This document shows, piece after piece, positions 19,816 to 29,804 of a DNA stretch of 64,000 nucleotides. The stretch's first letter is position 1. Each line of letters begins with the position of its first letter. Source of the stretch: a virus; the IMG/VR virus record IMGVR_UViG_3300036820_000008, positions 30,580-94,579 of that record; one strand, 5' to 3'. The position numbers and the translations under genes are program-made. The notes under the pieces are model-generated. The model was not told where the DNA came from, did not search any database, and saw nothing but the letters and a program-made list of their open reading frames with translations.

Positions 19816-20820
19816 TCACTCGTCCGTGGTGTCCTGTGTGGTGTCTTCGCTCGCGGTGTCCTGTGTGGCGTCGGTGGGGGTGTCGTCGGTTGCCTCCGCG
19901 TCCGTGGGGGCCTCCGTGAGGCCTGCGGCAGTTTCGGACTCGGTGAGCCAGTCACTTCTCTGCGGCCGGGGGAGGTGCTTCAGCCACTCGTCACGGTCGG
20001 CCGGGAAGTGGTGGATCCACTGGGCCGCGCACTGCCGGGCCTCAGCGAGCCCGCCGATGCCGGCCAGGATGCCGTTGGGGTCGGAGCCGGTAGGGTCGGC
20101 CGGGTTATCGAGGCTGTGGATTGCCGCACCGATGGCCTCGACGAGAACGAGTGCGAGGTCACGCTTGGCCTGCCGGGATGCGGACTTGCCAGTGCCTTTG
20201 CCCGATCCTGTGCCCTTGGCCGTGGCCCAGACTCCACCGAGTTTGGCGACGCAGGTGTGGATGTGGACCGCGCCGGTGTATCCGTTCTCGGCCAGCCAGG
20301 CGTCGCTGGGGTCGGGGTCGGTCATCTCCGTGCTGGGGTCCGCTGGGTCGGCCTTGGGGTGCACGGGCTGGGGAGGGGTGCCGCTGGGGTCGTCCTCCTG
20401 GGTCCAGGACTCGCGGATCTGGTCATCCCACAGCTGGCAGATGAGGTCGTGCGGATCCTCCACCAGTGCGGAGCCGGGACGCTCGTAGTCGGACTTCCGC
20501 GTGTCACGCTTGAGTATGGGGCACTTGGGGGTTTCCTCGTCGCCGGTGACGTGAACCTGGAAGTCTCCGTCCTTGAGAACGAAGCTGAGCAGGTCGCGCG
20601 GGTCCTCCACTTCGTGGGCCGGGATCTTGGCCGGGGAGAGCTTGCCGTTCTTGCGGGAGACCCGGATCTTCAGATCCTTGGCCGTGAGCCCGCACTCCGG
20701 GCAGCCAGGAAGGCTCGAGGTTGCTGCTGTGTTCGTCCTTGGGTCCGTGGAGTCACCTTCTGTCTGGGGGATGTAGACCCAGGCCTGGTTCTCACCGGCG
20801 CACTCAATGATGGTTGACAT
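19816..20820 (-). CDS. Modular early protein (Zn ribbon + domain A + domain B)
   Basis: Strong GC3 bias; shares domains with 21138-21731 and 27289-27723. Confidence 0.85.
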   Translation of the reverse strand: MSTIIECAGENQAWVYIPQTEGDSTDPRTNTAATSSLPGCPECGLTAKDLKIRVSRKNGKLSPAKIPAHEVEDPRDLLSFVLKDGDFQVHVTGDEETPKCPILKRDTRKSDYERPGSALVEDPHDLICQLWDDQIRESWTQEDDPSGTPPQPVHPKADPADPSTEMTDPDPSDAWLAENGYTGAVHIHTCVAKLGGVWATAKGTGSGKGTGKSASRQAKRDLALVLVEAIGAAIHSLDNPADPTGSDPNGILAGIGGLAEARQCAAQWIHHFPADRDEWLKHLPRPQRSDWLTESETAAGLTEAPTDAEATDDTPTDATQDTASEDTTQDTTDE

Positions 20821-21086
20821 GACTGCCTGCTTTCCTCTGGGGTTGCTGTTTGTTTGCTTTCGGTTGGTTTTCCGGGGGTTTGCTTTTGTTCTTTCGGTTC
20901 CTGCTGGTTTCTCGTCAGCCCGGCGGCTCTTACCTCGTCCCGGGCGGGACGCTAGTCAAACTATACCCTGTGATCGGCCGGTATGGGTAGGGTAGGGGGA
21001 GGATTCTTAGGCTCTATTTTCGACTACTTTGAGTTAGCATACCATGCGGTCTGCCTACGTGCAGTAACGGGTGGCTCCTGGCTGGG

Positions 21087-21126
21087 GTGTGCCGGTGTGT
21101 GCCGGTGTGTGCCGGTGTGTGCCGGT
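21087..21126. repeat. Tandem repeat (GTGTGCCGGT) x4
   Basis: Read directly. Confidence 0.9.
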
Positions 21127-21137
21127 GCTGGGGTATC

Positions 21138-25590: not shown

Positions 25591-25670
25591 CTCCCTCTGA
25601 GCTACTATCGTGGTAGCTCCCCCGGTCGTCCCGCAGGGAAGTCGGGACGGCCAGAGCAGCTCGCCGCTAG
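25591..25670 (-). ncRNA. Twin-hairpin cis-RNA element, copy 1
   Basis: Conserved with 26651-26728, with compensatory stem changes. Confidence 0.55.
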
Positions 25671-26650: not shown

Positions 26651-26728
26651 TCTCCTCTGGCTACCTACCTTGGTAGCTCCCCCGAGCCATCCGTATAGGC
26701 ACGGATGGCCAGGGCAGCTCGCAGCTAG
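26651..26728 (-). ncRNA. Twin-hairpin cis-RNA element, copy 2
   Basis: See copy 1. Confidence 0.55.
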
Positions 26729-27288
26729 GAACTACAGGAACCTGATCGGGATGTAATTGTCGCATGCCTGACAGTATGCTGTCGGATTGTCACCGGCGAA
26801 CACGCCGGGGTGCTCGCATTCGCTACTGGCTCTGGGTGCTGGGCTGTTGACGTGGAGGGCGTCGTACGCGACCCTGAGAGCCGTCATGGCATCCTGCAGC
26901 CGGTCGAACGGAAGAGACACCACGCTCTCGTTGAAGCGCACATACCAGCGCTTGGATTTGGGGTTGCTGATGATGTCCCACTTGGCGTCCGCCTTCAGCA
27001 CGTAGTGCCGGCTGGCGAACCTGCGGGTCATGTCGTACGGCAGGTGACTGTCCAGGCGAAAGTACCTGCCGTACGGCGGGATTGCTCCGGTCATGGCTCA
27101 GTAGCCCCAGCCCATGGCCAGCATGGCCACGCACAGCATGATGGTCCAGATCGTGCCTACGATGATGCTCTTGGTGCTCATTTGACGTACCCTCTCTCGG
27201 AACGGCATCCCAACGGGCTGCCTCCCCGGCATCCGCGCCTCGGCGTGAGGCGCGGCTACCAGGGGGACGGACCGGCGTGACCTAGCGC

Positions 27289-27723
27289 CTAGGCGGTCTC
27301 GGCCTCGGTGTTCCAGCCAGCGCGCTGCGGCACGGGCAGGAAGTTCTTCCACGTCTTGCGATCGGCGGGGAAGTGGTGCACCCACTGGGCGACGATCTGG
27401 TCACGCTCTTCGGTCGTACCGACAGCGTTGGCCGGGTGGTCGGCGGGGAGCGCCTTGAGGGCGGAGCCCATGGCCTCGATCATCGCCGTGGCCAGGGCAG
27501 CCTTGGCCGCGCGCTTAACGGCGGGCGACGGCTTGGTCAGTTCGGCGGTAAGGGCGGCCATCTTGGCCTCGTACTTGGCCGTGATCTCGGCCGTCACGCG
27601 GGCCTCGATCTCAGCCGGGGTCTCCCGCTTGCTGTTCTTGGCCGGGCTGGGAACGGCCGCCAGCTTGACGGGCGCGCCCTCAGTGCTCTCGGTACCGGCC
27701 GGGGTGGGGTTGGTCTCAGGCAT
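27289..27723 (-). CDS. First early gene; domain B family (QWVHHFPADR)
   Basis: AGAGGA RBS, strong GC3 bias, paralog of the C-terminus of 19816-20820. Confidence 0.82.
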   Translation of the reverse strand: MPETNPTPAGTESTEGAPVKLAAVPSPAKNSKRETPAEIEARVTAEITAKYEAKMAALTAELTKPSPAVKRAAKAALATAMIEAMGSALKALPADHPANAVGTTEERDQIVAQWVHHFPADRKTWKNFLPVPQRAGWNTEAETA

Positions 27724-28180
27724 TTTCTTCTTCTTCCTCTGGGTTAGGTCCCTATCTGGGGCCTCTAACGTCCTAGCCGGGTAGATTACCGCAGCCCGCC
27801 TAGGGCGAAAGAGGTCATAGGGTAGCGCCGCCACAACAGCGCTAGCTATGGCCTTACAATTGGTTGGGGTCCTAGTCGTTGGTCTAGGCGTCCCCCGGCG
27901 TCAGTAGCCTTACTAGAGTCCTCTCCCTAGCGGTTCTACAATCCGGCCCGTCAGCACGGGCGTCGTTATTAGGTAGGCGTCGGTCGCTCTGATTTCTCAG
28001 TGGGAGTCATGTCTCCTAGCCGCACGTGCCGCTTTCTACAGCAGCCTTTACGCGCTAGGGGCTCGGACCAAACCGCCCAGTTCTTAAGTTTTGGAGTAGG
28101 ATCGGCGCGCGTCACGCACGCCCCCGCGCACCCCGCGCGGCCCCGGCCTTACCCTTTTTCCTTTTTCGCTTACAGCTTAA
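27724..28180 (-). ncRNA. Putative large structured leader or ncRNA
   Basis: No credible ORF; about 10-12 consecutive stem-loops; GG-TAAGCT -10 element at ~28178-28185. Confidence 0.5.
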
Positions 28181-28376
28181 GCTTACCGTACCGGGGTGGT
28201 AAAACCTAGGAAATGCAGTAACGGAATGGTAACGTTACACTGTAACTTTAGGTAGTGCACGACTACCTGCAGTAGCGCCCTGCCCTGGGGTTAACGTGCG
28301 CGTTAACTAACAGCGCTAGTATTATGGTAACCAAGGCGTCTGGAAGAACAGCGCTAGCGCTTAAAGTGTCCTAGAA

Positions 28377-28451
28377 ATACTGGAGAACGATTTTACACTT
28401 TCCAGCAAAGTGCACTCCGAATTCATATACTGGAGAACAATTTTACAGTTT
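28377..28451. repeat. Direct repeat ATACTGGAGAACRATTTTACA x2, 50-bp period
   Basis: Copies start at 28377 and 28427. Confidence 0.8.
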
Positions 28452-28612
28452 TGGAAGGACTGCACTCCATCGCTATCACTTTTGCAGAATTTCCAGCCGC
28501 TTGTCAGGGCAATTCCTGGAATAGCGCGGACAATGGAAATGTGTTTCCAGGGGAGTGTAGGAAGATAGCCGCCCAAGAGAGGAGGGAGTGGAGGGGAGAA
28601 TGGCGCAAGAGA

Positions 28613-28644
28613 GGGCCGGGCTCCCCGATGAGGAAGCCCGGCCC
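28613..28644 (-). terminator. Hairpin downstream of the lectin gene
   Basis: GGGCCGGGCT...AGCCCGGCCC 10-bp stem. Confidence 0.55.
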
Positions 28645-28681
28645 GAGAGATGCGGCAGGCGATAAGAGGAGCGATAAAGGA

Positions 28682-29257
28682 CTAGGAGTCGGTCCGATTC
28701 CACTTCTGGTACGAGGCAGGCACAGAGCCAGTTTTCAGCCCGATCACCCAGGCTCCATTGAACTGGCCGCCGTAGTCATCCGTCATTACTTCGCAGAGAT
28801 CTCCGCCAGAGGCCTCATTGCAGATGAAGCCGCCAGTTCCGCCGTACATAAGCCACTGCTGGTCGCTATCGCCATCGCACGGGGCCATGTCGAGGTGAAT
28901 GTTGTCGTCACCGCCTGAGTCGTCGACGCATTTGCCGGACGCCTCAGAGACGATCGTTCCCCAGTTGCCGATGCCCCCGGACATCGCCCATTCCTGGGAG
29001 CTCTGTCCTCCACAGCCCTGTAGATCGAGGTCTCCGGCATTGTTCTGTATACAGTACGCGGGGTTCGCGTTCAGCGCGAGGTGATGGTATGTTACGGCAG
29101 AGGCACTGGAGACGCCAGCCGAGCTAGTTCCGGCGGAGACGCCGAGTCCAGCCAGGAGGACGCCAACAGCGAGCAGTACGGTCAGGCCAAAGAATCTTCC
29201 GCGAGATCTGAGTCTCTTGAATCCCATGCTACGTGAATTCCTTTCTAGAGAGGACAT
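28682..29257 (-). CDS. Secreted ricin-B (beta-trefoil) lectin-like protein
   Basis: Basic-then-hydrophobic signal peptide; QEW/QQW/QKW repeats; SGKCVD, C....Q.W. Confidence 0.8.
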   Translation of the reverse strand: MSSLERNSRSMGFKRLRSRGRFFGLTVLLAVGVLLAGLGVSAGTSSAGVSSASAVTYHHLALNANPAYCIQNNAGDLDLQGCGGQSSQEWAMSGGIGNWGTIVSEASGKCVDDSGGDDNIHLDMAPCDGDSDQQWLMYGGTGGFICNEASGGDLCEVMTDDYGGQFNGAWVIGLKTGSVPASYQKWNRTDS

Positions 29258-29324
29258 GGAAGAGATGCACGGGATAGTATACCGTACGCTATAATACCGA
29301 TCACGACCGAGTCAGGGAGAGGAC

Positions 29325-29804
29325 ATGGAAGAGATGCAGGGAGAAGACCCGAGGCCATACAGGACCTTCAGCGAGGTGCTGGAGGAGACGGTGGCCCAGA
29401 TCGACAGGAGCTTTCCGGCGGCGGCAAGTTTTCCCGAAACCGTGCAGTGGGCGGCCAATGATGTGGCGAAGGTTGTGTGGAGCGAGCAGTGCTCCTATGA
29501 CCACGACTCCGTTAGGGAGGCGGAGGACCCGCTATACCCTGGCAGGATATGTGTAGAGTGGAGAAGAGACCAGGGATATCTGGGCGATTACGGCATGGAC
29601 AAGGTGGAGGTGAGGGAGCTTATCGTTCAGCTGAATAATGCGCTGGGCGATGACGCCTTCCTCCTCGCGGAGGTGAAGGGGCCGGTGGATCCGGCTGGCG
29701 TGATGGCAAGGTCCAGGATGGCAAGGGATCGTGCGAGGATCACGCGAATAGCAGATGACGGGAAGCTCGAGAACGCTACCGGCCCGGACCCGGACACGGT
29801 ATAA
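29325..29804 (+). CDS. Hypothetical protein, paralog of 29812-30690
   Basis: FPAAASFPE...W..QCSYDHDSV shared. Confidence 0.75.
   Translation: MEEMQGEDPRPYRTFSEVLEETVAQIDRSFPAAASFPETVQWAANDVAKVVWSEQCSYDHDSVREAEDPLYPGRICVEWRRDQGYLGDYGMDKVEVRELIVQLNNALGDDAFLLAEVKGPVDPAGVMARSRMARDRARITRIADDGKLENATGPDPDTV

Follow-up and report, generated by a model that had tools for sequence, protein, structure and literature searches.

A probable structured 5' leader RNA, acting in cis, ahead of the first leftward gene of a virus with a probable actinobacterial host

The non-coding DNA in front of the first gene of the leftward arm of this virus appears to encode a functional, structured 5' leader RNA that acts in cis. 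We assign this reading a probability of about 0.7, because the last five hairpins of the presumed leader (H1-H5; Table 1) are kept in a close relative through matching base changes. The result is a defined candidate, consisting of a promoter, a likely transcript start, five compensated hairpins and one conserved linear motif. It lies within a 64-kb window (bases 30580-94579 of a complete virus record of 94,579 bp with direct terminal repeats), in which the genes left of ~29.3 kb are on the minus strand and include a primase-polymerase/helicase, a DUF3631 and a DUF2786 gene, and those to the right are on the plus strand and encode RtcB, terminase, portal, protease, capsid and tape measure proteins. 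The host is probably an actinobacterium, as the closest cultured relative of the portal protein is that of Streptomyces phage Dagobah (40% identity), and the leftward operon would, from its gene content only, be an early one.

The whole non-coding gap measures 958 nt (27724-28681) and separates a ricin-B-lectin gene from a 144-aa gene, both on the minus strand. The lectin gene has a promoter-like site of its own at 29285-29276, and the close relative, which lacks it, carries a small membrane-protein gene in that place. The ATG at 27723 named in the first-pass annotation was confirmed; it opens the 144-aa gene and is preceded by AGAGGA. The same annotation had seen no credible ORF in the stretch, and this holds: the only ORFs of at least 20 aa inside it are a 48-aa GTG ORF on the minus strand and a 69-aa GTG ORF on the plus strand, neither has a counterpart in the close relative, and the two leaders share no ORF position or peptide. 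A coding role or small ORF was therefore rejected, since no open frame is kept in the relative.

Table 1. Features in and around the leader, in window coordinates except where the genome is named.
Feature	Position	Strand	Remarks
Ricin-B-lectin gene	28682-29257	minus	Pfam E 5e-9
Possible terminator: 13-bp GC-rich hairpin 3' of the lectin gene	28613-28644	minus	no clear U-tract
Two 25-bp direct repeats, 50 bp apart	28377-28451	minus	one copy recognisable in the close relative
Palindromic block GCGCTAGCGCTGTTCTTCCAGAC (conserved), with the 12-mer GCTAGCGCTGTT in two copies	28309-28360	minus	
GTTAC pentamer cluster upstream of the promoter	28218-28250	minus	95% identical over 39 nt in the close relative
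Promoter -10 element ACGGTAAGCT	28189-28180	minus	ACGGTAnnnT copy heading the stretch
Other examples of the promoter-like motif	window 29285, 18594, 17526, 62403, 62935; genome 11184, 14657		
Conserved transcript start TAAGCGAAAAA (11-mer)	28172-28162	minus	a purine-rich tract and GGUAAG come next
Two GC-rich hairpins near the 5' end	28140-28124, 28122-28104	minus	in the fold; sequence not conserved
Conserved linear motif CUUAAGAACUG ('boxA-like' element)	28088-28078	minus	
Middle hairpins	27989-28059	minus	not conserved; CCUAGC...GCUAGG at 28059-28015, GGAG/CUCC, CUGA-GAAA-UCAG at 28000-27989
H1, 6-bp hairpin, loop GCUG	27946-27961	minus	in a 23-nt block identical in both phages
H2, three tiers (CGG/CCG; GUAG/CUAC; CC/GG plus UAGGG/CUCUA)	27896-27945	minus	purine loop AGAGGA
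H3, GGGG/CCCC around CCUAG/CUAGG, 8-nt loop	27866-27895	minus	same fold in both phages
H4, two-part hairpin of 17-18 bp, asymmetric internal loop	27812-27854	minus	invariant apex GUUGUGGC
H5, hairpin with a 13-nt loop	27765-27811	minus	conserved G-G mismatch
Hairpin ahead of the 144-aa gene	27764-27746	minus	not conserved
Shine-Dalgarno sequence AGAGGA of the 144-aa gene	27740-27735	minus	
144-aa gene, first of the leftward arm	27289-27723; ATG 27723-27721	minus	

The stretch is headed by a promoter. The -10 element described in the first-pass annotation is present as GGTAAGCT at 28187-28180 on the minus strand, with the TAAGCT hexamer at 28185-28180, about 2 nt from where it had been placed. 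It belongs to a set of 19 ACGGTAnnnT copies in the genome, 8 of which fall in sense non-coding DNA against ~1.3 expected; a ninth notable copy lies ahead of the left arm's lone plus-strand gene. The phage-wide form of this promoter-like motif, likewise enriched in sense non-coding DNA, is (c/g)(a/t)ACGGTAnnnT(ag), and the related phage L008 carries an identical motif at about 1108-1125. At the same spacing before the conserved start, the close relative (L002) has TATACT and a distant relative (L009) has TAGGCT; the L002 position is occupied by the octamer GCTATACT, which recurs 6 nt ahead of that phage's divergent leaderless gene. The 11-mer at the start is identical at the matching place in L009 (position 1270), 9 nt after TAGGCT, and occurs nowhere else in the genome of our phage. 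From the -10 position and the start common to the relatives, we infer that transcription begins near 28172 and yields a leader of ~450 nt. The 144-aa gene might also have a nearer promoter, given the -10-like GGTAATCT in the H5 loop.

Several conserved DNA sites precede the promoter. The GTTAC cluster is likely to be a regulator-binding site, judging by its conservation: its GTTACCATWCCGTWACTG is common to L009, and GTTAC sites occur in L002 (3338-3371), in L009 (1198-1235, 628-645 and 1854-1872) and in L004 (6314-6331). The 18-mer GTTACAGTGTAACGTTAC is also found unchanged in an unrelated viral contig of 35 kb, in a divergent promoter region adjoining a 196-aa ORF. The cluster is perhaps the operator of a regulator type that these viruses have in common. 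Farther upstream, the 12-mer GCTAGCGCTGTT occurs at 28309-28320 and 28347-28358, and it recurs in the same orientation inside H4 (27835-27846); the rest of the 64-kb window has no site within one mismatch of it. In the close relative the H4 copy is missing, and the 12-mer is possibly a stoperator-like DNA site.

The dense structure that had been described for this stretch is borne out by its fold energy. The 462 nt of the minus strand fold at -188.3 kcal/mol. Dinucleotide shuffles give -169.5 +/- 7 kcal/mol, so that z = -2.68, and 2 shuffles in 100 fold as well as the real stretch. Every stem on the earlier list was found, all of them in the minimum-free-energy fold. The plus strand of the same stretch gives z = -2.88; both strands thus fold equally well, and energy alone cannot name the strand. 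Within the window the signal is stronger in the 3' half (z = -3.0) than in the 5' half (z = -1.8), and the 3' half of the close relative reaches z = -4.3. No Rfam 15 covariance model matched anywhere in the window at the gathering threshold, relaxing the threshold to E <= 10 left the minus strand of 27724-28185 still without a match, and ARAGORN reported no tRNA; the Rfam search that had been proposed along with the annotation thus returned no known family.

In composition, the stretch is marked by the palindrome CTAG, present in 9 copies in 456 nt. The genome as a whole predicts 1.2 copies (p = 4e-6) and the remaining non-coding DNA of the phage 1.9 (p = 1.5e-4), and even by the second measure the excess is about five-fold. 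Other 4-nt palindromes are not strongly enriched, with CGCG and GCGC marginal (p of about 0.01-0.02). We also observed a G-quadruplex pattern on the transcript strand at 28154-28121 (minus strand; tracts GGG, GGGG, GGGG and GGGGG with loops of 7, 6 and 5 nt) that overlaps the two 5' GC-rich hairpins; the 5' module of the close relative is likewise rich in G-tracts.

The main evidence for an RNA comes from comparison with the close relative, IMG/VR 3300036792_000176 (L002/L003, with the 88-kb genome G001), the sole one in the collections searched. It shares 70-83% identity with our phage in conserved genes and its left arm is patchily alike. Three islands of the gap align: the upstream palindromic block, the 39-nt GTTAC cluster and the 3' part of the leader. 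The leader core is 84-86% identical over ~157 nt, on a level with the best coding genes (70-83%), and the non-coding DNA flanking the core is unalignable. The 5' 210 nt of the leader cannot be aligned and contain GC-rich hairpins in both phages. In the middle region nothing can be aligned beyond ACUGAGAA, which lines up with ACUUGAGAA.

Within the 3' half, RNAalifold applied to the two sequences predicts H1-H4 with 15 covarying pairs. In the hand-checked consensus of H1-H4, all 45 pairs form in both phages (90/90 cells). The core is carried by only two sequences, from which the consensus structure was itself partly derived, and its 11 double changes that preserve pairing (3 in H2, 8 in H4), with 2 single changes to G-U, therefore have little statistical power as covariation. 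Controls in which the pairing partners were slid gave 0-1 compensatory pairs and 26-49% pairing. The three compensatory pairs of H2 fall in its GUAG/CUAC tier, which reads ACGG/CCGU in the relative, around an invariant inner hairpin and loop; H3 differs by one G-C to G-U change; and H4, with its eight compensatory pairs, has z = -3.6 in the window and -5.5 in L002. Because MAFFT misaligned H5, this hairpin was folded alone in each phage, where it takes the same shape, with arms that differ around a common CUAGG and with three arm positions changed on both sides by an eye count only. Each of the other hairpins, when folded alone, is also shaped alike in the two phages. The helices are nested, vary in kind and keep their bulges in place, and the compensated ones have 4-nt loops. 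Two regimes of conservation can be seen: stems and loops are almost invariant in sequence in H1, inner H2 and H3, and in H4 and H5 the shape is kept and about half of the stem letters differ. Of the covariation looked for among homologues, the 3' half thus delivered compensatory changes and the 5' half could not be aligned.

These helices also bear on the question of strand. The consensus contains 8 G-U cells as compared with 1 C-A cell, an asymmetry that comes mostly from the relative, and the 3' half of L002 folds at -108 kcal/mol in the sense direction and -88 kcal/mol in the antisense direction, a difference not seen in the window. Together with the promoter and the orientation of the gene, this wobble and fold asymmetry favours an RNA on the minus strand.

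A third, distant phage, L009, was reached with a profile built from 35 remote homologues of the C-terminal domain of the 144-aa product. It has a gene of this family after >700 nt of non-coding DNA, and its leader resembles ours in the GTTAC operator, the -10 spacing, the transcript start, the 5' GC hairpins and the CTAG excess; analogous GC hairpins after the start are thus found near the 5' end of all three leaders. The five-hairpin core was not detected in L009, even with filters off. Other searches gave little. Apart from the phage's own protein, a protein word search returned a single relative; IMG/VR, scanned with both flanking proteins, RtcB and four DNA patterns, yielded the close relative only, plus chance hits (L004, L005 and L011); metagenome scans and a genome-contig scan with a leader pattern were empty; and GenBank phages gave no match by DNA or protein, so that no homologue was found among cultured phages. 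Four contigs encoding an identical 144-aa protein and the Logan contigs of the remote homologues were left out of the homologue set. Neither a sample of 151 actinobacterial genomes nor two whole genomes gave a hit to model R1, which identified exactly one copy in each of the two phage genomes (G000 and G001); neither of these has a paralogous core. Long structured leaders of phage early operons are a well-known kind, and this instance is a new one carried by only two or three genomes; from the sequences, a new RNA motif with a very small family is plausible.

As to what the leader does, we slightly favour a module for stability, processing or translation over nut- or put-like antitermination, a tentative choice at clearly less than even odds. 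On this reading, the ~450-nt RNA would be transcribed on the minus strand from the promoter at 28189-28180 as the cis-acting leader of the arm's first gene, with a fast-evolving 5' module (a purine-rich start, then GC-rich hairpins) and a conserved 3' module (H1-H5, 27961-27765) abutting the ribosome-binding site, and it would govern how stable the early mRNA is and how it is processed and translated. The 5' hairpins would protect against 5'-end-dependent decay; H4, with its two turns and internal loop, would serve as an RNase III-type processing site, as in the T7 early and lambda N leaders; and the sequence-invariant H1-H3, with their purine, Shine-Dalgarno-like loop, would be where a specific factor, either the ribosome or a protein, docks. 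H4 has the form of an RNase III hairpin in both phages (8-9 plus 9-10 bp, with an internal loop of 1 by 2-3 nt), which makes it a candidate site at which cleavage is predicted. A pure stability or RNase III role leaves the sequence conservation of H1-H3 unexplained. On the minus strand no intrinsic terminator lies between the fold and the gene, and no helix sequestering the Shine-Dalgarno sequence is common to both phages, the predicted pairings being different; a riboswitch or attenuator leader was rejected on these two grounds.

Long structured leaders time and protect early messages in lambda, HK022 and T7, and the T7 early-leader RNase III site R0.3 and 5' stabilisers of the Bacillus phage SP82 / STAB-SD type are among the nearest known parallels. 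In common with them, our phage has a first early gene preceded by a leader of ~400 nt, a hairpin of two turns interrupted by an internal loop (H4), hairpins close to the 5' end and purine tracts resembling a Shine-Dalgarno sequence. However, there is no homology, H1-H3 are conserved in sequence, a feature not needed in those elements, and cleavage and stabilisation are here predicted. To our knowledge, next to nothing is known of how phages of Actinomycetota control early transcription at the RNA level, and literature searches on actinophage leaders returned nothing relevant.

The leader might instead control elongation, its linear motif (CUYRAGAACYG) and H1-H3 loading host Nus factors or a phage factor onto RNA polymerase so that transcription of the leftward arm resists termination, a reading we consider somewhat unlikely. 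The motif was noted at first as boxA-like (as the string AACUUAAGAACUG at 28090-28078), and the part of that description that stands is its conservation: CTYRAGAACYG has one sense copy in each of the three leaders and none elsewhere in the 94.6-kb genome, against a chance expectation of ~0.003 per leader. The likeness to the boxA of rrn operons is not significant in the window. In the rrn leaders of at least 120 species across Actinomycetota the 18-mer TTTGAGAACTCAAYAGTG is invariant; the rrn motif, defined from at least 120 loci, is placed 150-185 nt ahead of 16S in all four loci checked for its position. The phage motif resembles the actinobacterial rrn antiterminator region (boxA/boxC, TGTTGTTTGAGAACTCAAYAGTGTG) in its core, UUGAGAACU, and in its sense orientation within a leader downstream of a promoter, and the resemblance is best in the close relative, where ACTTGAGAACTGAAT matches 12 of 15 positions and is the sole match with three or fewer mismatches in the 88-kb genome. 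The window copy, however, differs from the rrn-leader motif by more than three mismatches, and no leader beats shuffles with the full 25-nt rrn consensus (p = 0.92 in the window, p = 0.18 in L002). A GUUUGGU after the motif was rejected as a sign of boxA, as it matches mycobacterial leaders only and not the phylum consensus. The motif is thus a real conserved element, and its reading as a boxA is tentative (for the definitions of nut and boxA, see PMC2724277). In layout, the leader is comparable to the lambda pL leader, in which nutL and an RNase III hairpin precede N: both are long structured leaders heading a leftward early operon, in each of them hairpins come after a short linear motif and a long imperfect hairpin immediately precedes the ribosome-binding site of the first gene, and the sequence-level conservation of H1-H3 would suit a specific binder. 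However, the phage leader has no sequence or Rfam similarity to that of lambda, no N-like protein, no demonstrated downstream terminators and no significant match of its linear motif to a host-type boxA. Terminator-like sites on the downstream minus strand number 12, as compared with 11.7 in shuffles, and the element occurs once per genome and not in the rightward arm. The put RNA of HK022 comprises two hairpins of ~70 nt in total, is present in both early operons and depends on its stem sequences. Like our element, it takes the form of a folded RNA, acting in cis, that begins shortly after an early promoter, but five hairpins are found here, and copies at both early promoters are not. Nothing in these results shows the antitermination that the first-pass annotation had proposed. 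The more specific proposal that the five-hairpin module and CUYRAGAACYG form a new cis RNA that reprograms actinobacterial RNA polymerase and Nus factors, as a put/nut analogue for high-GC Gram-positive hosts, is less likely again; were elongation control true, the element would open a way to study antitermination by the actinobacterial RNA polymerase.

Readings that place the function elsewhere are all improbable to differing degrees. The most credible of them, though still quite unlikely, takes the conserved region as DNA, with operators, stoperator-like sites or part of a replication origin where transcription diverges and with an incidental RNA fold. It would accommodate the equal folding of the two strands of the window, the CTAG excess, the GTTAC cluster, palindromic AGCGCTAGCGCT and 25-bp repeats just upstream, and the 12-mer copies upstream of the promoter and in H4, but not the nested and varied helices with their bulges in place and 11 compensatory changes in helices with 4-nt loops, nor the excess of G-U over C-A cells and the 20 kcal/mol advantage of the relative's sense fold; in addition, the cumulative GC-skew minimum lies near 18 kb, away from the leader. 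Marginally less probable is a translational or autoregulatory operator, in which a phage protein, perhaps one encoded by the downstream gene family, would attach to H1-H3 and repress or time translation of the first gene. The near-invariant stems and loops of H1-H3 fit such a protein site, as does the occurrence of a leader and a gene of the family together in three phages, with the paralogue in our phage also following a long leader. Against it, no helix sequestering the Shine-Dalgarno sequence is kept between the two phages, L009 has the family gene and no core, and the 144-aa protein is all-helical without a known RNA-binding fold or Pfam family. The least probable of the named alternatives is a stand-alone or trans-acting RNA or a decoy released from the leader, as the first-pass annotation had also suggested. 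Processing at H4 could free a stable RNA of ~330 nt with hairpins at both ends, and the loops are conserved, but no terminator or 3'-end signal precedes the gene and there is neither a second copy nor an Rfam family match. Since no terminator parts the fold from the gene, a cis leader is the simpler reading, and the remaining probability falls to the absence of any function.

The product of the first gene offers few clues to these questions. Its C-terminal domain (W-x-HH-LPADR ... LP-x-P-x-RSDW) is also found in a 334-aa paralogue encoded in the window (19816-20820) and in ~35 metagenomic proteins. The full product has no Pfam family, no match among GenBank phages and no N-like features. An AlphaFold model of it is all-helical (pLDDT 86), with no fold match in the PDB and no known RNA-binding fold.

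A number of further elements were observed in the left arm and around the divergence of the two arms. An intergenic twin-hairpin element of ~75 nt occurs in two copies, at 25597-25670 and 26660-26730, just before ribosome-binding sites of the left arm; it is 84% conserved in L002 (5851-5923), where its first stem covaries. These elements, at 25.6 and 26.7 kb, were rejected as kin of the leader core because they belong to a different family, and the shared CGGGGGA shows no specific enrichment. The ribosome-binding region before the ATG at 29325 contains a 10-mer, GGGAGAGGAC, that is also found in the loop region of H2; the link was dismissed as probably due to chance because it is not conserved in the relative, in which the counterpart gene is leaderless. 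A direct repeat of 25 nt, with copies 96% identical at 29248-29272 and 29317-29341, covers the starts of both divergent genes. A second long leader (20821-21137) lies ahead of the 334-aa paralogue and contains four tandem CACACCGG units, a -10-like element, GGTATGCT, and a CCGTTACTGCA site resembling the one at 28222-28212.
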